Shown: one piece after another, positions 14,049 through 43,410 of the stretch
Layout: each line of letters starts with the position of its first letter
How positions within the stretch are numbered: the stretch's first letter is position 1
Assembly: GCA_041690395.1 (NCBI GenBank)
Contig: JAWLHJ010000004.1
Location: 305,365 to 369,364, forward strand
Source: Longimicrobiales bacterium
GTDB lineage: Bacteria > Gemmatimonadota > Gemmatimonadetes > Longimicrobiales > Gaopeijiaceae
Reading direction: 5' to 3'
DNA length: 64,000 nt
The notes under the pieces: generated by a model
The model's database searches: none
Seen by the model: only the letters and a program-made list of their open reading frames with translations
Told to the model about the DNA's origin: nothing
Made by a program: the position numbers and the translations under genes

Positions 14049-14100
14049 GATGGCTCCTCGCCCACGCGGCCATGGTACGGCCGGCCGGGCCTCGTCCTGG

Positions 14101-14916
14101 TCAGTTGCGCGTGTAGATCCACATGTCCAGCGAATCGGAGACCATGTCTCCCCCCGGACCCATGACTCGCTCTCCCGTCCGGATCCGAACCTCGATCTGC
14201 CGTACGTCGGTCGGAGTCGACGTGATGTTGCCGAGGGCGTCACGATAGATGAACTGCAACCCATCGGTCCCGGGATAGCGGAGAGGACCCGCGATCGGCG
14301 TGCCGTCCCGCGTCAGGTAAGGCGTGGTCGGGTACAGCCAGAGCCCCGTCCCATAGGTGAAGTACTGGTAGGCACGAACGGGCGCTCCGACACGAACCGT
14401 GTCGTTGACGAAAAGCCCGCCGGCCGTATCCACTTCGAGATCCATCGCCGGGCGACCGAGACATGTCACGGTATTGTCGACGTCGACGAGACCGACCCGG
14501 AGCCACCTATCGTCGCTTCCCGTAGCCTCACGATTGTCCGCGAATACGAGAACCGTGTCGTCGGCGACCGCGAAATCATCACCCGAATTGTCGAGCACCC
14601 GAATCCGGGGGGGGCTGGCGGTCGGACCCACATCGATTTCGCATGCGATGCCGAACTTGCGCATCAAGCGGACCCGCAGGTTCGACGGACCCATCGAGAG
14701 AATGTCACCGTCCGCCGGACTCAACTCCCTGAGCTCGTTGAACATCACCTCGATAGCCATTCGGCTGGCCTGCTGCCCCTCGATGGCGGCACTCTGCGCG
14801 GTGAAGGTCCTCTGATTGGTGATCAGCACTTGAAGCGCTGCCGAGAGGACGATGACACCGAGGACCGACACGACGATCAGCTCGACGAGTGTGAAGCCGT
14901 CACGATTCCTGGTCAT
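14101..14916 (-). CDS. PilW-like minor pilin (set 1)
   Basis: RDG|FTLVELIVV class III signal, ELR motif after helix 1, C-terminal TRN. Confidence 0.78.
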   Translation of the reverse strand: MTRNRDGFTLVELIVVSVLGVIVLSAALQVLITNQRTFTAQSAAIEGQQASRMAIEVMFNELRELSPADGDILSMGPSNLRVRLMRKFGIACEIDVGPTASPPRIRVLDNSGDDFAVADDTVLVFADNREATGSDDRWLRVGLVDVDNTVTCLGRPAMDLEVDTAGGLFVNDTVRVGAPVRAYQYFTYGTGLWLYPTTPYLTRDGTPIAGPLRYPGTDGLQFIYRDALGNITSTPTDVRQIEVRIRTGERVMGPGGDMVSDSLDMWIYTRN

Positions 14917-14919
14917 CGT

Positions 14920-15321
14920 CTATTGCCTCAGAATGCGGAAGACGAACGTGTCGGCTACGGCTGGCGCGAGGTTGCCCATACCGCCCGGGCTCAGACCCGG
15001 CCCGACGGTGACCACGGTCAGGATCTTCGACTGCGGACCGTCATCCTCGGCGTCCCAATTCACCGCGAAGATGCCAACGGAATCTGAGCCGTCCACCACG
15101 TTGTCGTACGGGAGCGACTGAAGCCGATCGATGATCGTCTGCGAAGCGAACGTTCGCTCCGTGAGCAGGTCGCCGAGCGTGACTGTCCGCACGAGGTAGC
15201 CCGTGGAGCCGGCGAGGCCCAGGAGCCCAATGGTCAGGATGACGATGGCGATGATGATCTCGACCATCGTGAACCCGGCTCGGGCATGCGTCGGCACGGC
15301 CGGCGAAACAGTGTCATTCAC
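14920..15321 (-). CDS. PilV-like minor pilin (set 1)
   Basis: RAG|FTMVEIIIAIVILTIGLLGL; start uncertain (GTG 15321). Confidence 0.75.
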   Translation of the reverse strand: MNDTVSPAVPTHARAGFTMVEIIIAIVILTIGLLGLAGSTGYLVRTVTLGDLLTERTFASQTIIDRLQSLPYDNVVDGSDSVGIFAVNWDAEDDGPQSKILTVVTVGPGLSPGGMGNLAPAVADTFVFRILRQ

Positions 15322-15329
15322 GGAGCGGC

Positions 15330-15794
15330 TCACTGGTTGAGCAGGAGCTGGCCCAAGGGCATGGCCCACAGGTTGGTCACCTCGGCGCCCTGATGGAAGT
15401 GCAGGCGCATCAGGGTGCCGGGCGTGCTGCAACTGAGATCGGCGTACCCGCGCGGGCTGAAACAGATCGTGTATTCGGTCAAGCTGCTCGGCAGTGAGAT
15501 CCTCATGTCCAGATTCTCGTCGCCGAAGCGGATGATCTCCAGGATGTCCCCGTCGTCCTCGATCCACACGGAATCCCCCGTCACGTCCGCATGCAACATG
15601 ACGTTCCGGCCCTTCTCGATGCCATGTACCCGCGCCCGGTAGTGGATCGCGGCGTATGTCGTCTGAGCCCCGCGGACCGCGATGCGGGTCTGTGCGCCAC
15701 TGATCTGATTCAGCGCGATCGTCGTCAGGATGCTCCCGATGACGATAGCGATGATCAGCTCGATCATCGTGAAGCCGGTGCGCGTGCGGTACAT
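15330..15794 (-). CDS. FimT/GspH-like minor pilin (set 1)
   Basis: RTG|FTMIELIIAIVIG, ARVHGI, I.FSPRG.A. Confidence 0.78.
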   Translation of the reverse strand: MYRTRTGFTMIELIIAIVIGSILTTIALNQISGAQTRIAVRGAQTTYAAIHYRARVHGIEKGRNVMLHADVTGDSVWIEDDGDILEIIRFGDENLDMRISLPSSLTEYTICFSPRGYADLSCSTPGTLMRLHFHQGAEVTNLWAMPLGQLLLNQ

Positions 15795-16187: not shown

Positions 16188-19100
16188 GTGAGACAGAGAC
16201 CCGCACTTTACATCGCTTTCGTCGTGTCCGGGATGGCCGGGCTCGTGTACGAAGTCCTGTGGAGCCGATACCTGGCCCTCTTCGTCGGACACGGCGCCTT
16301 CGCCCAGGTGCTGGTCCTCTCCGTCTACCTCGGAGGGATGGCGGTCGGCGCCTTGGCCGTGTCCGACATCTCGCGCAAGCTCGACCGGCCCCTTCTGGGA
16401 TATGCTGCGCTGGAAGTGGCTCTCGCCGCCTTCGGGCTGCTCTTTCACCCGATGTACCAAGCCGTGACGGGGCTCGGGTACGACGTGATCTTCCCCGCCC
16501 TTGCCGATCCGAATCTGGCCGGCGCGGTCCGCTGGGGGCTGGCCGGAATCATCATCCTCCCTCAGGCGATGCTGCTCGGCGCCACCTTCCCGCTCATGGC
16601 CGCGGGCCTCGTGCGTATGGCTCCGGACAGACCGGGCGGCGGCGTCGCCACCGCGTATCTGCTCAACACCCTGGGTGGAGCGGCCGGAGTCCTCGTGGCC
16701 GGATTCCTCCTCATCGGCTGGTTCGGCTTCGCGGGCACCTCGGTGGCCGCCGCGACCCTGAATCTCCTCGCGGCCGGGCTGGTCTGGAGCTCCGTGCGGG
16801 GATTCGCGGGCCCCTCGCTCGCTGCACCGGTCGACCGCGAGAAGGACGGTGCAGCCCCTCCCGAAGCACGTGCGCTCAGCCTCGTGCTCCTGCCGGTGGC
16901 GTTCGGGACGGCGCTCGCGTCGTTCGCGTACGAGATCGGTTGGATCCGCATGCTTTCGCTCCTGCTCGGGAGCGCCACGCATGCCTTTGAGTTGATGCTG
17001 TCGGCGTTCATCCTCGGGCTCGCGATCGGAGCGTGGCTCGTCCGCGGCGCTGCCGACCGTTCGCGGGAGCCCATCGCGGCGCTCGGCTGGGTCCAGGTCG
17101 CCATGGGGCTGGCGGCGCTGATGTCGATCCCGGTGTACGGGTCCTCGTTCGATCTCGTCGCCGCCATGGTCGAGGGTACCAGCGGTCGTCCCGGTGGATA
17201 CGCGCTCTTCAACATCGGGCGCTACACGCTCGCGATGACCGTCATGCTTCCAGCGACCGTCCTCGCGGGCATGACCCTTCCGCTGCTCACGGCGGCCCTG
17301 CTGCGCGCCGGGGCCGGCGAGCGAGCGATCGGCCGGGTGTACGCGGTCAATACCGTGGGCGCGGTTTCCGGCTCGGTCCTGGCCGGGCTGGTCCTGCTCC
17401 CCATCCTCGGCTTGAAGGGCCTGCTCGTGGCGGGCGCCGGGCTCGACACCCTCCTGGGCCTGTGGCTCCTCGCCTGGTCGGCCCGGATGGCCCGTGCCCA
17501 TGGGGCGAGCCCGGCTCCGGGCGGATTCGCCCGTTGGGGGCGAAGGGTCGTCGTTCCGGCGGGCGCGTGCCTGATCGCGTTCACCGGGGTCGGGCTCGGC
17601 GTCGACCTCGACCGGGTGGTCATCACGAGCGGCGTGTTCCGCGACGCGTTGGTCCCGGAGGCGTCGTCCCGGACGATGCTCTACTACCAGGACGGTAGGA
17701 CAGCGACGGTATCGGCGCACGTCGGGGCGGAGGAAGGCGTCACGGTACTGTCGACCAACGGGAAGCCCGACGCTTCGGTCGGACCCCTCTGGCGGATCGA
17801 GGGACGTGACACCATCCCCGAGACACCGATCCCGAGCGGCAGCGACTTCTCGACGCAGATGCTTTCTGGGGTCGTCGGGCTCGGGCACCGACCCGACGGC
17901 GGGTTGGTGGCGAACGTCGGACACGGCTCCGGCATCACGGGCGCGACGCTGCTCACGAGTGAAGACGTCGACCGGCTGGTCACGGTCGAGATCGAGCCGT
18001 TCATGGTCGAAGCCTCACTCGTCTTTCTTCCCCTGAACGAGGCCGTGTTCGCGGATCCGCGCTCCAGCTTCGTGTTCGACGACGCCAAGTCGTTCTTCTC
18101 GTACAGCCGCGAGCGTTTCGACCTGATCGTCACGGAGCCCAGCAACCCATGGGTGAGCGGCACCGCGTCGCTCTTCACGAGGGAGTTCTACGACCAGGTC
18201 GGGGACTTTCTCGCGGACGACGGTGTGCTCGTCCAGTGGATGCAGCTCTACGAGCTGACCGACGAGCTCTTCCTGACCGTGCTCGCCGCGCTGGATACGG
18301 CGTTCGAAGCCTACCGGGTCTACCTGGTGGGCGACGCCGACCTCGCGATCGTGGCTTCCCGGCGCGGGCCCCTTCCCACCCCCGACTGGTCGGTCGCGTC
18401 TTCACCCGCGATGAGGTCATTCACTGCCGGCATTCCCGAGATCAGGCCGGCGCACTTGGAGTCCTTGGCCCTCTTCGACGAATCGACACTCCGTCCGTTG
18501 CTCGACCGTGGGCTCCCGGCGAACTCGGACTTCGATCCGATCCTCGACCTCGGTGCCGAGCGCGCTCGGTTCGATCGGGCCTTCGCCCACGGTGCGTTCA
18601 GCTTCGCGACCAGCCCCCTGGACCTGGCGCGGCTCCTCAGAGAGGAGGCCCGTCCGCCGATTCCCCACACGCCGCCGCCCGCTCGCGGCCCCATCTCGCT
18701 GGTGCGAACCGAGCGCGGAGCCTGGCTGAGGGAGGCCATCGGCGAGGGCGGCGCGTACGCTCCGGACGCCTTCCCGGAGTGGACGGAGGCCCTGATCCAC
18801 TTGCAGACCTTCCTCTTTCTGAGCTCCGGTGACGCACAGCTCGGGTCGTGGGACACCTGGGGCGAGGGCTTCAGCCGGGCCGCGGGCGACCTGCACTGGG
18901 GCACGACCGGGTGGGCCGACACGACCTTCTACCGAGCCGCGCGGAGCTTCCTCGACCGGTCCGATGCCCCTGCCGAGGCGCGGGCCGTCGTCGATCTGCA
19001 CGAGGCGGTGTCGCTCCTCGACTGGGGGAGGGCGGCTGGCGCTGCAGACCTGCTCGTCGATCGCGTCGCCGCCGGAGAGCGTTGGGTGCCTCCGGCTACC

Positions 19101-19253
19101 CTGCTGGACGCAGCCGTGCTCGCCTATCTCCGTGTCGATCGGCCCGAGGCCGCGCGTAACGCGCTCGAGGCGCTGGCGCATGGCACGGGTCGCCCGGCAG
19201 GTCATCTGCGTCACCGTGTGCTCGACGCCTGGATCGCGGACGCGGGTGGATAG
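16188..19253 (+). CDS. Fused MFS-like membrane domain (about 13 TM) / spermidine-synthase-fold SAM-dependent transferase with helical C-terminus
   Basis: Two 6-TM repeats (YEVLW / YEIGW; LNTLGG / VNTVGA), then NGKPDAS, VGHGSGIT, VEIEP, DDAKSF, DLIVTEPSNPWVSG, SLFTREFY, QWMQLYE; start GTG 16188 (track 16071). Confidence 0.85.
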   Translation: MRQRPALYIAFVVSGMAGLVYEVLWSRYLALFVGHGAFAQVLVLSVYLGGMAVGALAVSDISRKLDRPLLGYAALEVALAAFGLLFHPMYQAVTGLGYDVIFPALADPNLAGAVRWGLAGIIILPQAMLLGATFPLMAAGLVRMAPDRPGGGVATAYLLNTLGGAAGVLVAGFLLIGWFGFAGTSVAAATLNLLAAGLVWSSVRGFAGPSLAAPVDREKDGAAPPEARALSLVLLPVAFGTALASFAYEIGWIRMLSLLLGSATHAFELMLSAFILGLAIGAWLVRGAADRSREPIAALGWVQVAMGLAALMSIPVYGSSFDLVAAMVEGTSGRPGGYALFNIGRYTLAMTVMLPATVLAGMTLPLLTAALLRAGAGERAIGRVYAVNTVGAVSGSVLAGLVLLPILGLKGLLVAGAGLDTLLGLWLLAWSARMARAHGASPAPGGFARWGRRVVVPAGACLIAFTGVGLGVDLDRVVITSGVFRDALVPEASSRTMLYYQDGRTATVSAHVGAEEGVTVLSTNGKPDASVGPLWRIEGRDTIPETPIPSGSDFSTQMLSGVVGLGHRPDGGLVANVGHGSGITGATLLTSEDVDRLVTVEIEPFMVEASLVFLPLNEAVFADPRSSFVFDDAKSFFSYSRERFDLIVTEPSNPWVSGTASLFTREFYDQVGDFLADDGVLVQWMQLYELTDELFLTVLAALDTAFEAYRVYLVGDADLAIVASRRGPLPTPDWSVASSPAMRSFTAGIPEIRPAHLESLALFDESTLRPLLDRGLPANSDFDPILDLGAERARFDRAFAHGAFSFATSPLDLARLLREEARPPIPHTPPPARGPISLVRTERGAWLREAIGEGGAYAPDAFPEWTEALIHLQTFLFLSSGDAQLGSWDTWGEGFSRAAGDLHWGTTGWADTTFYRAARSFLDRSDAPAEARAVVDLHEAVSLLDWGRAAGAADLLVDRVAAGERWVPPATLLDAAVLAYLRVDRPEAARNALEALAHGTGRPAGHLRHRVLDAWIADAGG

Positions 19254-19275
19254 CGCCCTTCCGGAGCCCGTTCCA

Positions 19276-20343
19276 TCACGGGCTGACCGGTGGAAGTCGC
19301 GGCACCGGCGTCGGTGACGGCATCCACTCGGTCGCACCGGCGCGCAAGGCTCGCGCCGCCCAGCATGCCGAGCCCCGCACGGTCGCGCCGGCGCCGACGA
19401 TCAACCCGCCGTCCGCCACGACCATCCCATGGAGCTCACTGCGGTCCTCGAGCGTGACGACGCCGCTGGCCACCACCATGCCGTAGAGGCGTGCGTCGCC
19501 GGACAGTTGCAGGTCCCCGTCGACCACCAGCATGGCCTGTCCGGATCCACCGGCGACGTGGAGCGTATCCGCGGTACGGCGGACGGCGATGTGCGCCCCA
19601 CACGGACCGGTCGGCCGCTCCGGGTCCCCCCAGTTCCACGGCTCGTCGGTCGAGCACACGCCGGCCCACTCGCTCGGGAACGGTACGCCCGTTCCAGCGA
19701 TCCCGACCGACGTCCCGGCCACCAGATCCTCGAAGCTCAGGAGACCGAGCGCGGCCGCAGACCCATCGGCCCCCGTCGCCACGGCGTCGGGAACGACACC
19801 CTCGAACGCGGGCCCGACCTCCGGATCGCAGGTCGCGGCATCGAGCGGTGCCTCCGCCAGCCCGAACCCGAGCCGGTCGATGCTGCCGTCGATCCGTACC
19901 AGGGCACCCTGGCCCACCGTCACGACCGCGCCCAGGGCCCGTATCCGGCTTACCGGATCCAACCACCAGAGGAGCAGCCCCGAGGTCCCGATGCGCCGGG
20001 AGCCGCCATCCAGCGCCGCCCGCTCGAGCCACCAGCTCTCGGGGCCGACGCGCCTCACACGGAGCGGTTGCCAGGCGGGGTCGGTCGGCTCGACGCCTTC
20101 CGCTTGGCCCCCGACCGCGGCAACGTCCCAGATAGGCAGGCGCATAAGGTCGCTGTCGAGGCCAGCCGCCAGGGCCTCGTCCCTCCGGGCCCGGAGAGCC
20201 GCCTTATCCTCGAGGGCTCCAGCGTACGCGCGGGAGGCGTTCAGCTCTGCACGCGCGACCAGCAGGGTGCCGTGCGCGAGCGCGGTGGCGGTGAGGAGCA
20301 GTAGCACGACCGCAAGCATGGCCGCCCCTCGCCTCCCCCTCAC
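19276..20343 (-). CDS. PilX-like minor pilin (set 2)
   Basis: RRG|AAMLAVVLLL; paralogous to 12888..14048 (NWGDPE.PT.PCG, GQAMLVVDGDL...LYGMVV); GTGA overlap. Confidence 0.65.
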   Translation of the reverse strand: MRGRRGAAMLAVVLLLLTATALAHGTLLVARAELNASRAYAGALEDKAALRARRDEALAAGLDSDLMRLPIWDVAAVGGQAEGVEPTDPAWQPLRVRRVGPESWWLERAALDGGSRRIGTSGLLLWWLDPVSRIRALGAVVTVGQGALVRIDGSIDRLGFGLAEAPLDAATCDPEVGPAFEGVVPDAVATGADGSAAALGLLSFEDLVAGTSVGIAGTGVPFPSEWAGVCSTDEPWNWGDPERPTGPCGAHIAVRRTADTLHVAGGSGQAMLVVDGDLQLSGDARLYGMVVASGVVTLEDRSELHGMVVADGGLIVGAGATVRGSACWAARALRAGATEWMPSPTPVPRLPPVSP

Positions 20344-21077
20344 GGCGCCCCCCCGCCGAGCGGTACACGCCACCGGCGTAGCGGACCCGGCCCGGTTCCG
20401 GTGATGGCTCCGGGGACCGCCCCGACCCGCCACACGAGCTCGGCACTCAGCCGTCCGTCCGCCAGGCCCCAGCCACTCTCCCGTTCAAACAGCTCGGGCG
20501 TAAGGGGCTGTCGGCCACCGGCACCGCGCCGGTAGCGGAGCGCCCGCCCGGACAGGGAATACGCTCCCCGCTCGAACACTCGTGCCAGCACGCCCCCTGG
20601 CGGAAACGCTCCGCCGAGCTCGAGGGCAAGGCCTCCCTCCAAGAGCGCGCCCCAACAGGTGGACGGACCCTCGGCGACACCCGTCAGGGCAAGCACGGCC
20701 CTGGCCCCGTCGGCGTAGACGACCTCGATCGAGTCCTTGGTCGGATCCGGGCGCCGGTAGCCGCCGTACGATACGACGAGGCGCTCCGGAGCCTCGTGCT
20801 CGCCGCAGACCAGTCCCGTTCCCCGGTACGCGCGCAGCGCCAGCGAGTCGTCAGCCACGGCCCAGTCGACACCGGCGCGGCCAGCGGCCGTCTCGGCCCG
20901 CAGCAACGCCCCGGTGAGGCGCACCGCTGACAGGGCGTCGGCCCGCTCCATGGCCCGCGCGTGAGCGAGGCGGGTCCGACCGACCGCGGCCATGCCCGCC
21001 TGCATGAGAAGGAGCCCGAGGAGGAGGGCCACCAACGTCTCGACCAGCGTGGCGCCGCCTACCTGCCGCCCGGTCAC
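20340..21077 (-). CDS. PilW-like minor pilin (set 2)
   Basis: GG|ATLVETLVALLLG divergent class III signal; GTGA overlap with the upstream gene. Confidence 0.62.
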   Translation of the reverse strand: MTGRQVGGATLVETLVALLLGLLLMQAGMAAVGRTRLAHARAMERADALSAVRLTGALLRAETAAGRAGVDWAVADDSLALRAYRGTGLVCGEHEAPERLVVSYGGYRRPDPTKDSIEVVYADGARAVLALTGVAEGPSTCWGALLEGGLALELGGAFPPGGVLARVFERGAYSLSGRALRYRRGAGGRQPLTPELFERESGWGLADGRLSAELVWRVGAVPGAITGTGPGPLRRWRVPLGGGAP

Positions 21078-21388
21078 GGGCGCGCCGCCTCGAGCCGGAC
21101 GAGGGTATCGCCGTGCGCGTCGGTGGCGACCACGACCGCCCGGCCTGGATCCAAAGCGGCCTCCCACCGCACGACTCCGCCCGGGAAGGAGTCCACGCCC
21201 GGACCCATGAAGCCGTGCGCTTCCAACGAATCGGCCGCCATGGCCGTCGCCGCGGCGGCCCGGGTCGTCAGCTCGGCCTCAGTCAGCGTGCGGGCGGCGA
21301 GCAACAGGGTGCCCACCACGCCCAGTACGCCGATCTCGAGGAGAACCAGCGCGACGACCACCTCGATCAGCGTGAAGCCCCGGCTCAT
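21074..21388 (-). CDS. PilV-like minor pilin (set 2)
   Basis: MSRG|FTLIEVVVALVLLEIGVLG. Confidence 0.75.
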   Translation of the reverse strand: MSRGFTLIEVVVALVLLEIGVLGVVGTLLLAARTLTEAELTTRAAAATAMAADSLEAHGFMGPGVDSFPGGVVRWEAALDPGRAVVVATDAHGDTLVRLEAARP

Positions 21389-21807
21389 TCACGCCTCACA
21401 CGTCCGAACGACGAGATGATCAGGCGTGTCCGGGACGATCCGGCCACCAACTCGATCGTCTCGTTCGCGAACACGCCGATGCCGAGCCCGTTGAACGGGA
21501 TCTCGGTGCGGTCGCGTCCGGCTCCCAAGGTCAGCCGGACCCCACCGTCACCGGGCACCGTCGAGCGAAACGTCGTCGAATCGCCCACGGCGATCCGGAT
21601 CTCGCCGTCCGCACTCAGGTGGAGGCTCGCCGCGCCCGCGCGCACGGCCTCGGTCCGCGTCCGGTGCAGCGCCGCCACGATCTCCTCGCGCGCGGTGAGC
21701 ACCTCCATGCGATCACCGAACCGGCTCGCGGCCGGCACGACCGCCGTCGACGCGGTGGCGAGCAGCGCGAGCGTCGCCGTCATCTCCAGGAGTGTGTACC
21801 CGTTCAT
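21385..21807 (-). CDS. FimT/GspH-like minor pilin (set 2)
   Basis: MNG|YTLLEM, TRTEAV, F.GLG, C-terminal IISSFGRVR. Confidence 0.72.
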   Translation of the reverse strand: MNGYTLLEMTATLALLATASTAVVPAASRFGDRMEVLTAREEIVAALHRTRTEAVRAGAASLHLSADGEIRIAVGDSTTFRSTVPGDGGVRLTLGAGRDRTEIPFNGLGIGVFANETIELVAGSSRTRLIISSFGRVRRE

Positions 21808-21861
21808 GCCCTCGACGATGGTCCCGGGACCGGGACGAGGGCATGGCGCTACGGGCCGTGC

Positions 21862-23216
<1,355 letters not shown>

Positions 23217-23220
<4 letters not shown>

Positions 23221-24329
23221 GTCGCCTCCGGGCGGGCGTCCGGGCCAGGGGTCTTTGCGGCTGGAAGCCTAATAGTAAAGCGTGCGCCCGCTTCTGGCGC
23301 GTTCGCCGCTTCGATGCGCCCTCCCATCCCCTCGACCAACCGTGCGCAGATCGAGAGTCCGAGCCCGGTCCCGCGGCCGGGCTCCTTGGTGCTGAAGAAC
23401 GGATCGAAGATCTGTTCGAGGTCGTCCTCGGGAATGCCCGGACCCGTGTCGGTAACGTCGATGATCGCCACCCGCTCGGCCAGGAACACGGGGTCGACGC
23501 CGCGTCCACCGTCGTCCCGCGAGATCCGGCGCCGATGCATGTAGTTCACGCCCGGCGGGTCGTCCTCGCGACGTGTCGGGAGATCCGCGACTTCGCCACG
23601 CGCGGCATAAGCCCTGACCCGGATGATCCTCCGAGGAGACGATTCCATCGCGTCGAGCGCGTTCAGGAGGAGGTTGACGAGTACCTGCTCCATCCGGTGC
23701 GCGTTCATGAGCACGTCCGGGGTGTCCGGTGCGACGTACCAGTGGGTCTCGACGTCGGAGAGCTTTCCCTGATGGTCGAGCAGCCGCCGGACCCGGGCGA
23801 CAACCGCACCGATCGCCTCGGGGGCCAGCCCCTCCTCTCTGGGTCGCGCATAGTTGAGGAGGCTCTTCACGATCCGGTCGATGCGCTCGGCCTCTTCCCG
23901 AATCGAGTCGAGGATCTCCGGCTCCGCCTCGCCCTTCCGGGCTCGAGCCCTGGCCACGTCGACGTAGCCCATGATGGCCCCGAGCGGGTTGCCCACCTCG
24001 TGGGCGATGCCGGCGGCGAGGGTCCCGACCGACGCGAGCCGCGCGGCACGCACGATCTCGGCACGGGCTTCGACCAGCTCCCGGTTGGTCCGGTCCAGTG
24101 AGGCGACGTTGCGCTCGAGGAGCTCGCGGTCCGGCGCCATCCAGCGACGGGCCAGCCAGGTCAGGCCGAGGGCACCGCAGACCACGCCCACGACAGCGAG
24201 CAGGATGGCCGGTATCGAAGCGCCCGGCCGGGCGAGGTGGAATCCGAGCGCGAGGAGGAGGAGAGAGATCGCGGCGGAGGCCGCGACGAACGCCCGGGAT
24301 GCCGGCGGACCGGCGGGGGTGGTGATCAG
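23217..24329 (-). CDS. Sensor histidine kinase with two TM helices and almost no extracytoplasmic domain
   Basis: H-box LAAGIAHEVGNPL, QVLVNLLLNA.DA, DTGPGI, IFDPFFSTK, GTGLGL; the frame stays open upstream of the track start (24191) to a CTG at 24329. Confidence 0.88.
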
Positions 24330-24712
24330 TAGTTGCAGGTGATCATGCTCTCCACGGTCGCCGGGCTGACCTGCGTGGCGTTTCCGTGATAGAGCGCGCA
24401 GGTGACGGACGGGAGGCCTGTGTGGACCGCGGACGCGGACCAGCCCTGCCCCGTCGCTTCACCGATGGTGACCGTGACGCCGTCCGAGCGGGTGAACCCC
24501 AGCGCATCCTGATCGGTCGAGTAGGTGAAGTTCGCGTTGTGATAGACTTCCTGCAGGCTGGCCAGGTTCCGGAGATCGGCGGTCATCGCGGATACGAAAG
24601 CCCGCTCACGTGTCGCCGAGAACTTGGGAATCGCGATCGAGGCCAGGATCCCGATGATGACGACGACGATCAGGAGCTCGATCAGGGTGAAGCCTTCGCG
24701 CTTGGTGGACAT
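24326..24712 (-). CDS. Type IVa major-type pilin, copy 2
   Basis: REG|FTLIELLIVVVIIGILASIAIPKF; C-terminal Cys pair. Confidence 0.92.
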   Translation of the reverse strand: MSTKREGFTLIELLIVVVIIGILASIAIPKFSATRERAFVSAMTADLRNLASLQEVYHNANFTYSTDQDALGFTRSDGVTVTIGEATGQGWSASAVHTGLPSVTCALYHGNATQVSPATVESMITCNY

Positions 24713-24770
24713 GAGGTCACCTCGAGTGAGCGAGTCTTCCGGATCGGTTCGAGAGAAGGTTGAGGAGGGG

Positions 24771-24815
24771 GCGGGTGGCCGGCCCGGGCCCGGAGGCCCG
24801 GACCGGCCCTTCCGC
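24771..24815 (-). terminator. Long GC hairpin between the two pilin genes
   Basis: GGCCGG.CCGGGCC-CGGA-GGCCCGG.CCGGCC stem; no U-tract, so possibly an mRNA-stabilising or attenuating structure. Confidence 0.5.
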
Positions 24816-24864
24816 TTCAGTCACACCCGCACCGTAATGCGGGGCCCTGCTACATCATGGTTCG

Positions 24865-25266
24865 TTACGGCGTGCAAGCGAGCTCGCCGGACTGCGCCGG
24901 CGACCCGAGCAGGGTCGGCGCAGAGGCAAAGTCGCCGTAGAAGATGCCGCAGCCCTCGGTGGTCGTAAGCGCGTCGTGGGTCGCCTGAGCCTGCCAACCG
25001 GTATTCGACGGCGCGGCGGGGAAGGTGACGTTCACGCCCTCGGACGAAACGAAGCCGAGGTTGGTGGTGTTGCTGGTGTAGGTATAGTGGTCCGAGTAGT
25101 AGATCTCCTGCTGGCTAGCCAGGTTCTTCAGGTCGGACTTCATCGCGGCGAAGTAAGCCCGCTCACGCGTGGCGGAGAACTTCGGAATGGCGATGGCCGC
25201 CAGGATGCCGATGATCACGACCACGATCAACAGCTCGATGAGGGTGAAACCCTTGTTGTCCCGCAT
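24865..25266 (-). CDS. pilA: Type IVa major pilin
   Basis: MRDNKG|FTLIELLIVVVIIGILAAIAIPKF; GGAG RBS; sigma54 promoter upstream; C-terminal Cys pair. Confidence 0.9.
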   Translation of the reverse strand: MRDNKGFTLIELLIVVVIIGILAAIAIPKFSATRERAYFAAMKSDLKNLASQQEIYYSDHYTYTSNTTNLGFVSSEGVNVTFPAAPSNTGWQAQATHDALTTTEGCGIFYGDFASAPTLLGSPAQSGELACTP

Positions 25267-25316
25267 TGGAATGCTCCAGGTGTGAAGTGAAACCGGGTTG
25301 TGCGACCAAGATATGG

Positions 25317-25331
25317 GCAAGCTCTGTTCCA
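25317..25331 (-). promoter_or_regulatory. sigma54 -24/-12 promoter of the pilin genes
   Basis: Minus strand TGGAAC-AGAGC-TTGC (GG-N10-GC), about 50 nt upstream of pilA; AT-rich tract upstream at about 25350-25374. Confidence 0.75.
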
Positions 25332-25474
25332 CCTGTGCCACGCACGACATAAGCTACTGCAATAAAACGTGTTAAGGCGCTCTCGACAGCCCAGCCCCAT
25401 GACGTCTGCCAGCGCTCTATCTGGGATTCTGCAAGGCGCCATGCCTTGTGCGATACTGTGCAGTACCGAGACGC

Positions 25475-27403
25475 TCAGTCGCCGTCAGGCGGCTTCGGCC
25501 GGCTCGGCTCGGCTCCAAAGTCGTAGACGAGGAGCGAATCGAGGCTTGTTCGTCCTGATGCGGTCGAGACGGTCGCCCGGGCCGAATCGAGTGCAGCCTG
25601 CATCGCCGCATCGTCACCGGCCCGCCGCGCGACCCAGGCGTCGTAGATCCAACGCTGCCAGAACTGAGCGACGGCGCTACGCTCGTCCGCCCGAGCACGC
25701 ACCTCGGCGGCCTCTTCCCAAGCCCCCCGGGCAGCGAGTGCCCACGCGAGCACGTGTAGCCGTGCGGCGTCTGTGCCCGATCCCTGAACGGCGAGTGCCA
25801 CCCGTGCGTAGCGCTCGGCCTCGCGAGGGTTCCCGAGCTCCGCGTGGATCCCTGCCCGAATCCCGTATGCAAGCGGATGATCGGGCCGTTCGCGGGTGGC
25901 GATCGCGAGAAGTCGGTCCGCGCTCTCCGGTCGTTCGAGATTCACCAGGGTCTGTGCCACGTGGACCAGCAGGCCGTAGTGTGTTCCTACGAGGTTGATC
26001 GCCGCCCGATAGGCGAACAGCCCCTGGCTGATCTGCCCCTGTCGGATGAAGTGGTCACCCAGGGACCATTGGGCCCTTCCCGAATACGGATGGTCCCGCA
26101 TCAACACCGCGAAGACCGTGTTATGGGTCCGCCAGTCGGGATTCCGCGTCCAGGTGCGGACGGACCCGGCGAGGAGCACCACCAGAAGCACGGCGGGAGC
26201 CATCCTGGGCCGATCTCGCGCCATCCGAACGAAGAGCCACCCCACGGCGGCCGCGAGCCCGGCCGATGGGAGGTAGAGCGTTCGCTCCGCCAAGATCACG
26301 CCAGTGAGAAAGAGAGTGTTCGAGATCGGCGAGATAGCGATCAGGAACCAGACGATCCCGAACGCCGCCACTCTGGCGGAGCGTGACCCAGGTCCGAGAT
26401 CGGCGCGCCGCCAGGCGAACCATGTGCCAAGGAGGACCACGAGTCCGAGCACCACGCCCGTCACGTTGGTCGCGTTCCAACCGAGGGAGACCGGGATGAC
26501 GTTGGGCGTGTAGTCGGACGAGAGGTCCAGCGGGAAGACCCAAAGCCGCACATAGTGAGTCCAGACCTCCCCGAGTGTCCAAATCTTGGGCACTTCGTAG
26601 AGAAGATCGAAACCGGCCGGCCCGATCGGCGCGCCAGCCCCCTGAAGGACCGTGGCCCGCGCCGTCAGCATGCTCACCGCAACGACGAGCATCACGAAAT
26701 AGACGCGCCAGCGCCGGGCGACGTAGGCCTGAAGCTCTCGGAATCCGATGCGCTCCTGGGCCGCGTCGACCAAGAACACGAGTCCGGCGAGCGTCACCGC
26801 CCCCTCCTTCGCGCCGAAGCCGACCGCGTACAGAACCCCGACGGCCAGCGCGCGTCGCCATCCTGTGCGAGGTCCGCTCCCGAGGTGGATGGCGAGGGCA
26901 GCGAGCACAGCGAGGGCCGCCGTGATCTCGGCCTGACCGACCACGTTGGCTACCGCCTCCGTGTGCACCGGGTGAACGGCGAAGACCAACCCCGCCACGA
27001 ACGCGATGCCGAGCGTCATGAGGCGAGCGAGAACCAGGACCAGGAGGCCCGAGACGGCCGCGTGAAGTGCGACGTTGACGAGATGGAACGGAAGTGGCGA
27101 TCCACCGCCGATCAAATACTGCAGTCCGAACAGTCCTGTCGTTACCGGCCGCCAGAGCGCGAGCTCTGGGCCCGCGGGGCCCGGCCAGTAGGGGGCCAGC
27201 AAGGCACCTGGAAGCCGGTCCCAGCTCTGGATGGTCGGGTTCCTCTCGATGATCGAAACGTCATCGTATGCGAAGCCGTTGAGCAGCGAGTTCGCAAAGA
27301 CGACTACCGCGACTCCGACGACAATCAGAACAGCTCGCCGAAGGGTTAGGGCGCGCAGCCAACCGGCAAACGCCCGCTCCGTCATCCGCATCGAGTCCCT
27401 CAC
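25475..27403 (-). CDS. TMTC/DUF1736-like GT-C membrane glycosyltransferase with C-terminal TPRs
   Basis: F.YDD...I..NP, WRP.T, FHLVN..LH, FAVHPVHTEAVANVVG.AE, KE, AER.LYLPS, RN.DW, TPR-like helices. Confidence 0.82.
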   Translation of the reverse strand: MRDSMRMTERAFAGWLRALTLRRAVLIVVGVAVVVFANSLLNGFAYDDVSIIERNPTIQSWDRLPGALLAPYWPGPAGPELALWRPVTTGLFGLQYLIGGGSPLPFHLVNVALHAAVSGLLVLVLARLMTLGIAFVAGLVFAVHPVHTEAVANVVGQAEITAALAVLAALAIHLGSGPRTGWRRALAVGVLYAVGFGAKEGAVTLAGLVFLVDAAQERIGFRELQAYVARRWRVYFVMLVVAVSMLTARATVLQGAGAPIGPAGFDLLYEVPKIWTLGEVWTHYVRLWVFPLDLSSDYTPNVIPVSLGWNATNVTGVVLGLVVLLGTWFAWRRADLGPGSRSARVAAFGIVWFLIAISPISNTLFLTGVILAERTLYLPSAGLAAAVGWLFVRMARDRPRMAPAVLLVVLLAGSVRTWTRNPDWRTHNTVFAVLMRDHPYSGRAQWSLGDHFIRQGQISQGLFAYRAAINLVGTHYGLLVHVAQTLVNLERPESADRLLAIATRERPDHPLAYGIRAGIHAELGNPREAERYARVALAVQGSGTDAARLHVLAWALAARGAWEEAAEVRARADERSAVAQFWQRWIYDAWVARRAGDDAAMQAALDSARATVSTASGRTSLDSLLVYDFGAEPSRPKPPDGD

Positions 27404-29538
27404 GGGGCCACCAAGCCAGCCAAAGCAGCGTCTGAGCCGATATCCGGACTCCAGATCAATCGCTCCCCCTCGAGGTACGGCATCGCGCGGGGAGCGCCGT
27501 CGGGCGTCGTCGAGGCCAGAAGGTACGGCGTCCGCTCTGGGAAGGCCTCCATTACCGCCCGATTGCGGCGGGGGCCAAGATCACGCACATACATCGCCCG
27601 GTCGCCGGTCTCCAAGCCCGGCAACTCCCCCTTGAGTAGCAGGGGAGCCAACGAGACCATCCCGAACCGGTCCGCCTGGAGATGCCGCGCGCATTCGGGG
27701 GTCAGTCGCTCCCCTGGGACCATCCGGACGTTGAGTGCCATGCTGGGAACCGGTCTCTGGCGAACGCCGGGCGCCGTGCCGGGCTCCTGACGGAGATCGA
27801 TCACCGGCAGTTCAGCCACCCCATAATCACTCCGGGCGGCTGCGGCTCGCGCCTCCGCGTACTCGTGCACCCGGCAAGTCGAGTTCCGGCGCAGCACCGA
27901 GACGATGGTGTCCGATCGCATACCGCCCTCTCCCTGGAGGACTGCACTCATACGCTCGTACCAGCCGGCGTGGACGAAAACCAGGGCCCCGTCCGCCCCC
28001 ATCTCCTCGATCGTGGGCGGCGTGATTCGGCCCAAGGTCTCCTCGGTCCACCTATGACTCTCCACCAACCGGGGAACGCCCCACGTCACGGCGACGACCA
28101 GCGCCAAAGCGGCCGACCAGACAGCGGTGTCCGGCCCTCGCCACGAAACGCTCGCGAACCGCGAGGCCGTTTCCTGCTGAGGGGGGCGGCGTGTGAGGTG
28201 AACGGTCCCGAGGACTCCCAGAGCAAGCCAGGCCGGCGCGCCTTCGTAGATCATACGGGTCGTGTGGAACCAGTATCCGGCGTTAGCGATCAGGGGCAAC
28301 GTGGCCCACATGACAAGGAAACCGGCTCCGCGGGGCAATGTCCGCGCGGAGAGGAGGTACAGCCCGACGACCGCGGTAAGGGGAACCGGCGTCTCGAGGA
28401 AGCGGATGCCGATCTCGAGGAAGTCGGTGGAGGTGAAGCCCAACGCCTCGGCAGGGCCATAGGGGGCGCCCCATGGGTCCATGTGGAAGCCGAGCCCGTG
28501 TCGATCACCGTATGCCGCTGAATAGCCCAACGTCAACGGATCGCCGAACAGCCGCTGGTTGTACCATCCGAGGAAGAGGGCGAAGGGCATCCCCCCCATG
28601 GCCGTGGCGAAGCATCGGCGCGCCAGACCATGAACACCGAACTCGGGCCGAGCCGGGATCCAGATGCCGAGCGTGAAGAGGGTGCCCAGAGCCACTCCTT
28701 GCAGAGGGCGGGACATGACGGCGAGTCCGATCGCCACGCCGGCGAGCACGGCCCAGGAGGCGGATCCGTCGCGGGCCCTCAGGGAACTATAGAGCGCCAG
28801 AGTCAGAAAGAGGCCCGCCGTGAGATGGCTGAGCGCTCCGCCCCCCAGAAGGACGACGAAGGGGCTGATCGCAAACAGAAGCGCAGCCAATCGAGCCTCG
28901 GTATCTCGCTCGGGGAGGAGCCGCGGCAACGACAGCACCAGCAGGAACGCCGTAGCGGCCACGCAGAACGGGCCCAGCAGGCCCGGCACGCCCAGGCGGA
29001 CGAGCAGGGCCATCACCACAAGATGAGATGGTGGGTATTGGGAGACCCAGCCCTCCTCCACCATGAGCGTGTTGGGGAACAACCAGGCAGCCGGCGTGGC
29101 TGGAAGCGGTCCCGCCAGCCGGCCTGCGGCCAGATACCGGGCATGCACCATCGACGCGATTTCGTCGACGTTGGTGTAGTGCCCCTCGTATAGGATCGTC
29201 CACGCCAGGAACGCGAGGCCACCCGCCAAACCGGCCGCCAGGAGACCCAGGGCCGGCCGTGACGGTGCCCGGGCGGCCTTCGCAAGGCTTTCCACCCACC
29301 CACGGATCCGATCCGCGGGCAGGAACCACGCGAGAACGGCACCGGCGAGGACGATCGTGATCGTGCCCCAGAGCGCCAGATCGAGGTTGAGCTCGCCGAA
29401 TAGAAAGCTGGCCTCCCGGAACGAGCTTCCCCCTGCCGAGCCTCCCAGGATCCGATAGATCGGAAGGAACGCCAGGGCCAGGAACACAGCTCCCAACCCC
29501 CGTCGCACCACCGTCGTCGCGCGGGCCAGCCCGCTCAT
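27400..29538 (-). CDS. GT-C (ArnT/PMT-like) polytopic glycosyltransferase
   Basis: DE motif after TM (NVDE...MVHARYLAAG), SQYPP, LLFAISP, RP, YN..LFGDPL..GY; large C-terminal soluble domain; ATGA overlap. Confidence 0.68.
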   Translation of the reverse strand: MSGLARATTVVRRGLGAVFLALAFLPIYRILGGSAGGSSFREASFLFGELNLDLALWGTITIVLAGAVLAWFLPADRIRGWVESLAKAARAPSRPALGLLAAGLAGGLAFLAWTILYEGHYTNVDEIASMVHARYLAAGRLAGPLPATPAAWLFPNTLMVEEGWVSQYPPSHLVVMALLVRLGVPGLLGPFCVAATAFLLVLSLPRLLPERDTEARLAALLFAISPFVVLLGGGALSHLTAGLFLTLALYSSLRARDGSASWAVLAGVAIGLAVMSRPLQGVALGTLFTLGIWIPARPEFGVHGLARRCFATAMGGMPFALFLGWYNQRLFGDPLTLGYSAAYGDRHGLGFHMDPWGAPYGPAEALGFTSTDFLEIGIRFLETPVPLTAVVGLYLLSARTLPRGAGFLVMWATLPLIANAGYWFHTTRMIYEGAPAWLALGVLGTVHLTRRPPQQETASRFASVSWRGPDTAVWSAALALVVAVTWGVPRLVESHRWTEETLGRITPPTIEEMGADGALVFVHAGWYERMSAVLQGEGGMRSDTIVSVLRRNSTCRVHEYAEARAAAARSDYGVAELPVIDLRQEPGTAPGVRQRPVPSMALNVRMVPGERLTPECARHLQADRFGMVSLAPLLLKGELPGLETGDRAMYVRDLGPRRNRAVMEAFPERTPYLLASTTPDGAPRAMPYLEGERLIWSPDIGSDAALAGLVAP

Positions 29539-31667
29539 ACGGTGGCGCCTCGCGACTCCATCGTCCCACTCCGGCGCGCGAGCCAGAACACGACCAGATA
29601 GGCTGCCACCGCTCCGAGGCTCAGCATCCGCAGGCCCACGGCCATCGACGTGAACTCCAGAAGGCCGCCGGCCACGGCGCCCAGGAGGTTCCACCCGAAG
29701 GCCACCCCGACAGACTCCCGCGTCCGAAAGCGGAGGGCGAAGCATGCCGCCGCGAAGAAGATGGGCGTGCCCACCAGAAGCACGGAAAGAGCCAAGCGGA
29801 GCGGGACCGGGTGGCCTACGAGAGCGCCCGTCGGTACGACGAACGTCACCAGGAGCGACGCCACGAGGCCCACGGCGGCGGTCCGGAAGCCCATCGGCTT
29901 GAGCTCCATCAAAACGGTCCCCACCAGAATCATGGCAAGGATGGAGCCGAACACCACCGCGCTGGTGACCCATGTCGCGCCCCACACCAGGCTCATGGCC
30001 GTGATGAACTTGGTCTCGATGACGAGGAACGCGACGCCGAAGAGGAACATCTCCCAGTCGGCGCCTCCACTGCGCCCGAAGGCACGACGCATGTCCGGTG
30101 ACGCGAAGAGCACGGCCAGGACCGAGAGGGCCATGAAGACCGCCATGAGGGACAGGTAGAAACCACTCACCCCGGGCCCCGGAAGATAGAGGTAGGGCCA
30201 GTCGTCGGTGGGCATGCGCCCCACACCGACGGCACGTGCATCCTCCCCGGACACTCGGGTGAGGATCGGCCCGGCGTCCGAAACGTCTTCGAACGCCGGC
30301 CCCGTCATGTAGACGTAGTTGAACATCATCCAGTCGTCCGCCGCGACGAGAGGAGGCTCCCCGAAAGCAGACTCCAGAACAGCGGTGAGGTGCCGGTGGA
30401 TGTGTTCTTCCCCACCCACCATGAAGTACATGACGAGGCCCCCATCGGGGGCGAGGCGGCTCCGAGCCGCGTCTATTGCCTCCCTGGTGTACACGAAGTT
30501 GTCCAGCCGTACGTTCGAGAGCGCGGACAGTCGTGTCATGGAATCCAGCGTCCCGAACACCACCAGGTCGTACAACTCATCCGTGTCGTTCAAGTGTGAC
30601 CGGGCGTCCGTGTTGAGCACCGTCACCCGCGGAGAGCTGTATGGGTCGTCGGGATGGAGCTCGCGTCCGATACGTTGGATGATCGGGTCGATCTCGACCG
30701 CGTGAATCTCCGCCGCTCCCTCGTCGAGTAGGGTTGCAACGTCGTTGCCCGTCCCGGCACCCAGTACGAGAACTTTCCCGAGAGGTCGGTCCAGGAGTCG
30801 GTACGGGAGGTGGTATCCGTCACGTGTTTTCTGAAGCGGGTCGTTCCGCGGTCGCCCCAGTGAGTCCGCAGCCGCCACACCGAAGGCGAGCTGATGAAAC
30901 GATCCGTTCGTGTATACCCCGATGCCCTCCCCATCCCCATGCCATTGGCGCACGGAGAGCGAATAGTACGGACTGTAGATCTGGCCGCGCTCCGACCCGC
31001 TGACCAGAACCAGCAGCAAGACCATGAAGCCGGCGTACGCCAGCCCTGTTCGTCGTCCCCGTACGAAGAGGACGGCCGCGACCGCACCGAACAGAGCGAA
31101 CCAAACGGCAGGGAAGGTCCTTGTGAAGGAGGCTACGGCGAAGCCGATCACGCCGAGGAGTGAACCAACCAGATCGATGGAGTAGCCCCACAGTGCGCTG
31201 GACTGAGCGCGAAAGACGTCGAGACGTTGCGCGATCAGCTGTCCCAGTGGCACGAAAGAGACGGCGCTCAGGACGAAGAGCACGACGAGCGGCAGGCGCA
31301 CTCCGTCCACCACAGGGGCTCCTGGCCCGAGGTCGAAGTAAAGAAGCCACAGATGCTCACCCACCCCATTGTCGGTGAAGGCGATCCCGCTCATCAGCAC
31401 AGCGGCCGACACGACCGCGATGAGAGCCGGCGGCCATACCCACAGGAGAGAGCGACCGTGGGAGCGCAGCGCCCCGACGCCCAGGCCCAGGAACGCGCTG
31501 ATGAGGATCAAGTTCGGGAAGTATGCGACTACCCGAACCTGTACCGGGAGCCATCTGATGAGGGCCAATTCCTGGAACAGGACGACGAACGATGCAGCGA
31601 GAAGCTGGAGGCCCGCGAGACGAAGGGACACTCCCCCGCTCGGCCCCGTCTGGGTCTCCTGGCTCAC
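29535..31667 (-). CDS. Polytopic membrane protein with central spermidine-synthase-fold SAM domain (7 TM - domain - 6/7 TM)
   Basis: [75 protein letters not shown] start overlaps the GT2 stop. Confidence 0.82.
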
Positions 31668-32512
31668 GCCGGATGTCCTGTCTCGGCACTGGACGATCGT
31701 CCATCCGGCCGCGCCGGCCCCCGCCCCTCCCACGGATCCACCTCGGGTACCGTCCACCGCGGCACCCGCGGCGGGAACACGTTGTACTTGAAGATCGCCC
31801 AGAGCGCCGACACCCCGTCCTTCCAGCCGATCTTCTTGCCCTCGGCGTAGGAGCGTCCGTGGTAGCTGATCGGGAGCTCGTAGATGCGGGCTCCGGCCTG
31901 GGCCAGGCGTGCGGTGAGCTCGGGCTCGATACCGAACCGGTTCGCGGACAGGGGGAGGCTCTGGAGGAGCTCCCGCCTGACCATTTTGTAGCACGTCTCC
32001 ATGTCGGTCAGGTTCAGGTCCGTGAACATGTTCGACATGAGGGTGAGCACGCGGTTCCCGATGGAGTGCCAGAAGAGGAGCACCCGGTGCGGGCCGCCGA
32101 GGAAGCGCGAGCCGTACACGGCATCGGCCTTGCCACTCAGAATGGGTTCGAGCAGGTAGGGGAGCTCGTACGGGTCGTACTCGAGGTCGGCGTCCTGCAC
32201 GACGACCACATCCCCCCTGGCGTGCTGGAAACCGGTCCGGAGCGCCGCCCCCTTCCCCTGGTTCCGCTCGTGCATGACGAGCCGGTCGATCAGACTCCCT
32301 TCGAGGGTCGGCAGGAGGTCACGCGTTCCGTCGGTGGAACCGTCGTCGACGACGATCACCTCGAGCCGGAGCGGGACCTCGCGGACTCGCTCCAGGAGCT
32401 GCTCGACGGTCTCCCTCTCGTTGAAGACCGGAATCACGACACTCACCCGCACGGAGTCCCATGCGAGCGGCTCGTGCGGAAGCGCGTCCGGACCTAGGGG
32501 TCTGCTATCCAT
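31664..32512 (-). CDS. GT2 glycosyltransferase, DPM1-like polyprenol-phosphate sugar synthase
   Basis: [63 protein letters not shown]. Confidence 0.9.
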
Positions 32513-32583: not shown

Positions 32584-33957
32584 TCAGTCGCCGACACCAT
32601 AGCGGTTGAGCTTACGGTACAGCGTGGACGGATCGATGCCCAGCACCTCGGCGGCGCGCGTCTTGTTCCCGCCCTCCGCCTGGAGCACCCAGAGGATGTA
32701 GGCCTGCTCGATCGTCTCCATGGTGGGATTCGCCGGTGCCTCGTCGTTCTGGACGAGCCTGGGCGTGGGACGCTCGCGCACCCGGGTCGGAAGCTCCTCG
32801 GGGCGGATCTTCTGCCCGGACACCACGACGGCGGCCCGCTCCAGCGCGTTCTGTAGCTCACGCACGTTGCCGGGCCAGTCGTACTCGGTCATCACGCGAA
32901 GCGCGTCCTCCGTGAGCTCCAGCGGCTTCTTCCGCTCCCGCTGCACCGCTTCCTGCTCCAGGAAGAACCTCGCCAGGAGGGGGATGTCGTCCTGACGCTG
33001 GCGGAGCGGCGGAAGATGGAGCTGGATGACGTTGAGCCGATAGTAGAGGTCGCTCCGGAACGCCCCCCGCTCGATCTCGGCCTCGAGGTCCCGGTTGGTG
33101 GCAGCCACGATCCGGACGTCCACGGGCACGGCTTTCGTCGCCCCGACGGGGATGACCTCCCGCTCCTGGATCGCGCGGAGGAGCTTCACCTGGATGGCTG
33201 GCGACATCTCGCCGATCTCGTCCATGAAGAACGTGCCGCCCTCGGCGGCCACCAGGAGCCCGTCCTTGTCCTTCACGGCGCCGGTGAACGACCCCTTCAC
33301 GTGACCGAACAGCTCGCTCTCGAGCAGGCTCTCCGGCAGCGCGCCGCAGTTGATGGAGAGGAACGCGTGGTCCGACCGGTGTGAGGTGGCGTGGATGTAG
33401 CGCGCCAGCACCTCCTTACCCGTGCCGCTCTCTCCCGAGATGAGCACGGTGGAGTCGGTCGTGGCGACGGTTTCCGCGAGCTCGATGACTTCCTCGAACG
33501 CCGGCGCCGACCCGATGGGACGCTCCGCCCGGCCCGCCGACCGCTCGCCGATCTCCTTCTTCAGGGCCCGGTTCTCGGCCTTCAGCTGCCGGGTCTCGAC
33601 GGCCCGCCCGCAGAGCGCCAGGAGCTCGTCGTTCGAGAACGGCTTCTGAAGGTAGTAGTAGGCGCCCTCGTTCACGGCCCGAACGGCCGACTGGAGCGAG
33701 GCCTGGGCCGTCATGAGGATCACCGGCAGCTCGGGGTCGATCTCGCGCGCGGCGGCGAGCACCTCGAGTCCGGTCTTGCCGGGCATGCGGATGTCCGTCA
33801 GCACGAGGTCCGGCTTCTCCGCCTCCAACGCGTCGATCGCCTTCTGCCCCGAATCGGCCACCGACACCCGGTACCCCTCCCCACGGAAGAGGACCTGGAG
33901 CGTGTCCAGGATCGACGTCTCGTCGTCCACCAGCAACAGCTTCGGTCCTTCGCTCAC
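32584..33957 (-). CDS. sigma54-dependent response regulator, PilR-like no. 1
   Basis: REC (VDDE, TDIRMP), [40 protein letters not shown] overlap with the kinase. Confidence 0.93.
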
Positions 33958-43380: not shown

Positions 43381-43410
43381 ATATATTCATATTCGAATCG
43401 ATGAATACAT
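43381..43410. promoter_or_regulatory. Inverted repeat overlapping the ArsR-methyltransferase start, candidate autoregulatory operator
   Basis: TATTCAT-N10-ATGAATA (43384-43407) in an AT-rich island. Confidence 0.6.

Follow-up and report, generated by a model that had tools for sequence, protein, structure and literature searches.

Two membrane-fused spermidine-synthase-like proteins in a Longimicrobiales type IV pilus locus are candidate outward-facing methyltransferases

A stretch of 64,000 nucleotides from a Longimicrobiales bacterium (assembly GCA_041690395.1, contig JAWLHJ010000004.1, positions 305,365 to 369,364; hereafter 'the window', meaning that whole stretch) carries a type IV pilus cluster composed of pilMNOPQ, two minor-pilin sets that flank a gene here called A, two pilins, and a cassette with the order PilS-PilR-GT2-B-GT-C-TMTC-like-pilin, which contains a second gene, here called B. 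Gene A (16188..19253, plus strand; an open frame of 1021 amino acids) and gene B (29535..31667, minus strand; 710 amino acids) both encode a predicted major facilitator superfamily (MFS) membrane domain fused to a domain of the kind that binds S-adenosylmethionine (SAM). We consider it somewhat better than an even bet (a probability of roughly 0.55) that both products are outward-facing, SAM-dependent methyltransferases that are fed through their own MFS domain. According to this reading, the predicted MFS-fold membrane domain of each protein would export SAM, and perhaps return S-adenosylhomocysteine (SAH), with the catalytic domain lying on its periplasmic face; the acceptor would then likely be a pilus-protein amine in the case of A, and might be a sugar built by a GT-C glycosyltransferase in the case of B. 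A broader version appears rather unlikely as a whole: that such single-chain machines export SAM and recover SAH for periplasmic methylation in bacteria, with the clade of A devoted to methylating the pilins of type IVa and Flp pili in several phyla, and B serving as a swappable methylator of GT-C-built surface glycans.

Neither gene is a chance open frame, since 4607 homologues of A and 1803 of B were recovered at E ≤ 0.001 (among approximately 7990 scored candidates for each); the named homologues of both belong to the Gemmatimonadota, Longimicrobiales among them. AlphaFold2 models, built from alignments of 113 (A) and 120 (B) sequences, place 13 membrane helices before the SAM domain in A (predicted local distance difference test score 93.8, predicted template-modelling score 0.91) and seven before that of B (90.8 and 0.92, respectively). 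These numbers agree with the odd counts (about 13 and about 7) that had been estimated by eye in a first-pass annotation of the sequence, in which the seven further helices that follow the SAM domain of B (a 7 + 7 build) had been overlooked. Its proposal of an MFS-like bundle fused to a SAM fold is supported by structural matches to MFS transporters, and the motifs that it singled out are all present: ARWGRR, GHGSG and EPSNP at residues 448, 578 and 650 of A, and RGRR, GAGTG and GTLDS at residues 203, 303 and 372 of B.

The first 438 residues of A (16188..17501, plus strand, as are all segments of this gene) adopt an MFS fold in the model (Z 27.8 to VMAT2, 9kqa, with a root-mean-square deviation (rmsd) of 4.1 over 366 aligned residues; Z 26.9 to NorA, 28vj). 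Helix 13 (residues 454-472; 17547..17603, placed by model and hydropathy) follows the basic loop ARWGRR and is predicted to carry the enzyme domain outside; its mean hydropathy is 1.96, and exceeds 1.2 in 98% of the 113 aligned rows. The enzyme domain itself (residues 472-798; 17601..18581) has the spermidine-synthase fold (Z 27.2 to 1uir, rmsd 3.9, 285 residues aligned), with GHGSG at 17919-17933 and EPSNP at 18135-18149, and is followed in the model by an all-helical C-terminal domain (18582..19250), for which an atlas search matched only unnamed clusters (best score 0.90) and returned no family. In the B model, the SAM domain (residues 226-501; 30165..30992, minus strand; GAGTG at 30747-30761, GTLDS at 30540-30554), which also has the spermidine-synthase fold (Z 20.5 to 1uir), is inserted between two MFS halves that jointly rebuild a single fold (Z 24.4, rmsd 3.9, 317 residues aligned over residues 14-709), so that the 2 × 6 helix arrangement of the MFS is predicted for both proteins. 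Helices 7-13 of A together with its enzyme domain are homologous to helices 1-7 of B together with its own (HHalign probability 96.8%). As judged from that homology, the shared core (six helices, then a crossing helix, then the enzyme) is completed to a full MFS fold in two ways: A gained the missing half ahead of the core, and B after it.

Profile searches place the two genes differently. Gene A lies above the cut-off of the NCBIfam family NF037959, 'fused MFS/spermidine synthase' (65.3 bits versus 40), and is thus a member of a catalogued, uncharacterised family, which would be a bacterial variant of the kind represented by the fungal methyltransferase NHMT; B gave no match to that family at E ≤ 0.001, and reached 24.6 bits against PF01564 (cut-off 22.9). 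No MFS_1 match was found in A or B at E ≤ 0.01 using the Pfam MFS profile, and PF07690 was carried by two of 120 A homologues among the matches listed; the matches listed by Foldseek against the PDB were spermidine synthases only, and do not bear on the membrane part. A literature search, from which subscription papers and supplements were outside scope, found no description of a bacterial family member or of periplasmic SAM supply.

The genome of origin holds four family members of differing build, and two NF037959 members besides A lie elsewhere in it. One paralogue of 492 amino acids (contig C6, 240958-242433; L155:1309-2787) has a bare seven-helix form of NHMT-like build, scores 210 bits against NF037959, and might need to dimerise in order to form a full MFS fold; in another, of 779 amino acids (C6, 62455-64791), a rough scan indicates some 14 hydrophobic segments. 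At 50% identity, 1082 clusters matched B at E ≤ 1e-30, and clusters of approximately 490-530 amino acids resemble its residues 10-500, and may be naturally occurring half-forms that lack the second membrane half. Two A orthologues (L359:9758-12809 and L236) were called in two or three pieces, owing to a frameshift or an assembly error. A set of 301 genomes around G151 gave no match at 1e-80, those shown being small and the set containing no positive.

The orientation of the enzyme domains was assessed from the charge of the loops, with helix bounds taken from the AlphaFold2 models. Lysines and arginines average 17.4 in the predicted inner loops of A versus 7.8 in the outer loops, and the inner count is the higher one in 113 of 113 rows; for B (eight inner and seven outer loops) the corresponding means are 16.4 and 6.1 across 133 diverse homologues, with the same bias in all 133 and in each of 120 rows of close homologues. 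MFS proteins are oriented with both termini in the cytoplasm. The agreement of the charge bias with that orientation argues that both enzyme domains lie outside, and the extracytoplasmic placement proposed in the first-pass annotation is accordingly the one predicted for every aligned homologue. When B is compared in structure with spermidine synthase, the aligned region starts from residue 96, within the outer loop that joins helices 3 and 4, which suggests that the enzyme domain packs on the outer face of the membrane protein. An MFS fold with an outward-facing enzyme domain is, on the strength of these models, highly probable for both proteins.

The D-x-x-D motif that follows strand beta-4 has roles in spermidine synthases. 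The acid of their GxG(D/E)G loop is needed to bind decarboxylated SAM (dcSAM), according to excerpts of PMC10349129. In an alignment to the Thermotoga enzyme, S581 of A occupies the position of the glycine-loop aspartate, and E650 and N653 those of the first and second aspartates of DSTDP; S581 is present in 99%, and E650 in 100%, of the 113 rows. The five commonest residues at position 306 of B (T306) are T, S, A, M and G, with no acid among them (133 rows). Both proteins therefore lack the dcSAM-selecting acid, and in place of D-x-x-D A carries E-P-S-N and B carries G-T-L-D, with a glycine opposite E650 of A and an invariant D375. The acid that contacts the SAM ribose is retained in each (E601 in 100% of A rows, E/D325 in 99% of B rows), and N524, G525, D553, E650, Q683, W684 and E689, around the acceptor side of the A enzyme domain, are invariant.

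Scores against the curated SpeE models fall far short of their cut-offs (TIGR00417, 58 versus 249.6; NF002956, 127 and 27 versus 472). In the genome of origin (completeness 98.3%) no S-adenosylmethionine decarboxylase (PF02675, TIGR03330) was found, with the controls being positive in 7 of 14; a PF01536 search had no positive control. Genes lying at most two places from a family member, represented by 269 clusters, also included no decarboxylase, and, by hand count, no match to it was present in 13 of 30 genomes with a close A orthologue. Because the dcSAM acid is missing and the genome yielded no decarboxylase, spermidine synthesis by A or B is unlikely, in line with the initial view that they are not polyamine synthases. 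By analogy with NHMT and the METTL13 domain, methyl transfer would be the likely chemistry, over other uses of SAM. The retention in A of E650, at the position of the amine-activating aspartate of spermidine synthases, favours N-methylation, and the acceptor of B is probably different because glycine replaces that acid. An idea that phosphoethanolamine might be converted to phosphocholine was discarded, no EptA-type N-terminal domain being found in the genome of origin (controls positive in 2 of 14).

The membrane part of A is as well conserved as its enzyme domain, with 38% of columns conserved at 90% or more in each. Its buried polar residues Y157, N160, R254 and N388 are retained in 98-100% of 76 distant rows, and E33, R38, E551 and N660 of B in 97-100%. 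The cavity of MFS proteins is lined by helices 1, 5, 7 and 11, and the near-invariant polar residues of A and B fall in those helices. The acid and arginine in this part would suit SAM, yet other solutes would fit as well; transport of the cofactor through the MFS part appears, on this pattern, modestly probable.

The association of A with pilus genes was examined by calling genes in fetched loci, and by scoring pilus and GT-C markers within 6 kb. A tree built with IQ-TREE covered the 124 rows that derive from genomes, metagenome rows being left out; in it, the A clade (SH-aLRT 97) is pilus-linked in 23 of 48 rows, versus 1 of 76 outside it, and the pilus-marker background in the genome of origin is 2.6%. 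Two of the genome-derived rows (L125 and L127) count as linked through PilS/PilR only. A FastTree analysis that included metagenome rows gave 43 of 87 versus 1 of 76, before removal of two labels judged false for want of a family match (L113 and L281, still within the 43; L113 was relabelled for the count of 23). Members of the clade lie beside pilus genes in at least eight gene arrangements, in more than one phylum: among others, between minor-pilin sets, divergent from pilA, in the slot of B after PilR (L122, L127), beside a TMTC-like gene (L137), after minor pilins (L131), and convergent with a pilin (L301). The closest metagenomic orthologues retain the location between the minor-pilin sets, and 21 of the 23 have a pilus marker nearby; this represents a single ancestral event. 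In one family (f10) A lies directly upstream of a pilin in seven of nine cases, the other two being cut by contig ends, and in three genomes of the phylum of G152 a clade member directly precedes a motif-recognised Flp pilin (L307, L310:10081-10344, L312). GT-C genes occur near only 5 of 87 A rows; because most pilus-linked A loci are without one within 6 kb, these surveys point to a link with pilins and not with glycans, and to pilin protein more than glycan as the target. That the target of A is a pilus protein falls a little short of even odds.

Gene B overlaps the stop of the upstream GT2 gene and the start of the downstream GT-C gene by four nucleotides each (GTGA and ATGA), which bears out its earlier description as translationally coupled within a glycosyltransferase operon. 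In five congeners, however, the GT2 gene abuts the TMTC-like gene with neither B nor the GT-C gene between them (confirmed by gene calls in one), and the B, GT-C and TMTC-like genes have a third-position GC content of 0.79-0.80 versus 0.889 ± 0.041 genome-wide, with codon adaptation at the 3rd percentile. B would therefore seem to have joined a variable glycosylation cassette recently, as a passenger inserted together with the GT-C gene. In another genome of the family B is located 3.4 kb from PilS, outside the cassette. Given that B is coupled to both GT2 and GT-C, a glycan is plausible as its target, although at odds well short of even. The slot between PilR and pilA is occupied in relatives by varying GT2, GT-C and TPR genes (L178-L197), and an acidobacterial locus (L326:5179-12422) carries divergent A-like and B-like genes next to a TPR-bearing GT-C-like gene.

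A number of these surveys and comparisons weigh against the proposal. The rows of the A clade are kin and not independent, 25 of the 48 lie away from pilus genes (two of them cut by contig ends), and the tree shows long branches meeting at the Flp-adjacent group. On inspection, the pilins of A-linked loci display no residue that is missing from pilins of genomes without a close A. The phylum was represented by 151 genomes, of which 132 have a pilin, 30 a full close A and 15 a B match, so neither gene is needed for pili; three unpublished genomes (G056, G801, G096) enter only tallies across genomes, these among them, and no locus-level claim is based on them. A survey of B covered 80 loci from many phyla, of which seven had no called protein of at least 600 amino acids and 73 were scored; a pilus marker was found in 4 of the 73, and in none of 13 further loci (12 from its own phylum and one acidobacterial). 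The expectation of the first-pass annotation that homologues would be enriched near pilin or glycosylation genes is thus upheld for A and pilins; for B, pilus genes are rarely nearby and the GT-C link is weak, with a GT-C gene within 6 kb in 11 of 73 loci after manual correction (the L006 label proved to be TPR only, and a GT87 neighbour at L049 had been missed by a length filter) versus a background of 1.7%, a contrast inflated by the use of GT-C markers built from the surveyed B loci themselves. Finally, none of the MFS matches is a SAM carrier (identities were 8-16%), and 17 of the 30 genomes that have a close A also carry a decarboxylase-like gene.

The alternative that survives these points best retains the same chemistry, and holds that the position in a pilus locus reflects hitch-hiking in a gene-swapping hot spot, with general envelope molecules as the targets. 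It is possible but doubtful: the junction without B and its adjacent GT-C gene in five congeners, the atypical codon use of the cassette, the half of the A clade that is unlinked to pili and the lack of a pilin signature all fit it, and A, which keeps to pilus loci through its various arrangements and across phyla when sister clades almost never do, does not. Less is explained by supposing that the proteins are mainly transporters (importers of SAH, methylthioadenosine, SAM or an amine, or else flippases) in which the SAM fold serves as a cap or sensor, or that the MFS part only anchors the enzyme or presents a membrane substrate, with SAM arriving otherwise. The full MFS folds, the lipid flippase LtaA among the structural matches, and the four differently built members in one genome are consistent with transport, and the NHMT authors, in excerpts of PMC10349129, do not settle what the membrane part does; the invariant acceptor-side residues of A fit catalysis instead, and an importer gives no reason for its repeated place beside pilins, which together make this view unlikely.

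A third possibility is that the outward SAM-using domain transfers a 3-amino-3-carboxypropyl group (+101) or, given dcSAM, an aminopropyl group (+57) to an acceptor other than a polyamine. A site that has lost the dcSAM-selecting acid can admit intact SAM, but the loss does not decide which carbon is attacked. The closest solved folds are indeed aminopropyltransferases, an acid is kept at the catalytic position of A, and the decarboxylase-like genes in genomes with a close A would suit the aminopropyl version, against which stands the genome of origin, where no such gene was found. Since the characterised spermidine-synthase-fold enzymes without the loop acid (NHMT and the METTL13 domain) are methyltransferases, as described in excerpts of PMC10349129, this chemistry seems quite improbable. 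That A and B are ordinary, cytoplasm-facing spermidine synthases, as their Pfam and NCBIfam names imply, is scarcely credible given the SpeE scores, the missing acid, the failure to find a decarboxylase, and the predicted outward topology.

The remainder of the locus is consistent with a pilus cluster, within which, as first described, A sits between two minor-pilin sets, both encoded on the opposite (minus) strand; no promoter or terminator consensus was found around it. The first set (12888..15794), upstream of pilMNOPQ, comprises three genes with a prepilin N-methyl motif, the largest of which is called 'PilX-like' by position only; the second (19276..21807) includes a GspH/FimT-like gene (21385-21807), its other names resting on position and similarity. 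Minor-pilin and 'TMTC-like' names were assigned from position, motif and architecture. The following features are likewise on the minus strand: two major-pilin-like genes identified by profile matches (24326..25266; 24326-24712 and 24865-25266); a multi-pass membrane protein with TPR repeats, considered a TMTC-like GT-C candidate from its architecture and from homologues with PMT_2 matches (25475..27403); the GT-C glycosyltransferase candidate coupled to B (27400..29538; PMT_2 26.8 bits, cut-off 26.1); the coupled GT2 gene, resembling polyprenyl-phosphate-sugar synthases by profile matches (31664..32512); and, at the head of the cassette, a PilR-like sigma-54 regulator and a PilS-like kinase (32584..35624; 6TM_PilS 44.4 bits). 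An ArsR/methyltransferase regulator with the adenosylhomocysteinase gene ahcY lies 12 kb from B (43401-45856), and at another locus (L358) a B homologue is found approximately 1.5 kb from a similar pair. A gene that runs off the end of the window (62010-63998) encodes a protein-L-isoaspartate methyltransferase joined to a domain that resembles erythromycin esterase but scores below the EreB cut-off.

Bacterial SAM chemistry is taken to be cytoplasmic. If A and B are indeed outward-facing methyltransferases fed through their MFS domains, the fusion of transporter and enzyme would account for the methylation of exported proteins and of glycans assembled in the periplasm, would suggest a role for the membrane part of the fungal NHMT, and would correct the annotation of thousands of proteins. 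It would also provide a testable type of candidate for orphan modifications, one example being the trimethylated C-terminal lysine in Synechocystis pilin (excerpts of PMC7076178). Two builds of the putative machine are available at this one locus, one of them with a specific candidate substrate.

Among known systems, the prepilin peptidase and N-methylase PilD performs SAM-dependent pilin methylation, as is proposed for A; a gene with its N-terminal domain was found separately elsewhere in the genome of origin. PilD methylates the new pilin N-terminus at the cytoplasmic face. SpeE and related aminopropyltransferases (PF01564; 1uir, 1inl) share with A and B the fold, the SAM-ribose acid and the glycine loop; A and B differ from them in the missing dcSAM-selecting acid, the altered motif after beta-4, the membrane fusion and the predicted outer location. 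The name of NF037959 implies polyamine synthesis, which the motifs and genome of A do not support. A Geobacter gene annotated as a spermidine synthase (GSU2502) is down-regulated together with its neighbours omcS and omcT, according to excerpts of PMC10599522.

Extracytoplasmic group transfer through a membrane domain has counterparts of other design. AT3 acyltransferases (excerpts of PMC9558356) likewise use a membrane domain to deliver an activated group from the cytoplasm to a target outside it, but they transfer acyl and not methyl groups, and their fold is unrelated to that of A and B. GoSAMT1-3 (excerpts of bioRxiv 10.1101/2021.07.06.451061) and C. elegans SAMT-1 (excerpts of PMC6422873) are candidate Golgi SAM transporters of the MFS that would serve luminal methylation; these are stand-alone, unfused MFS_5 proteins with putative transport activity, and resemble A and B by proposed role. 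The closest worked-out precedent is NHMT of Aspergillus nidulans (AN4663), which, as described in excerpts of PMC10349129, has seven membrane helices followed by a spermidine-synthase-like domain without the GxG(D/E)G acid, and methylates secreted proteins in the endoplasmic reticulum after signal cleavage, its membrane part being required; for its helices those excerpts report no good structural match and propose no transport. An odd number of helices, a predicted outer spermidine-synthase-like domain and a non-acidic glycine loop are found in A and B also, and the build of NHMT corresponds to the unit of 6 + 1 helices and enzyme that the two have in common; NHMT, however, is eukaryotic and has seven helices only, whereas A and B are each predicted to possess a full 12-helix MFS fold.

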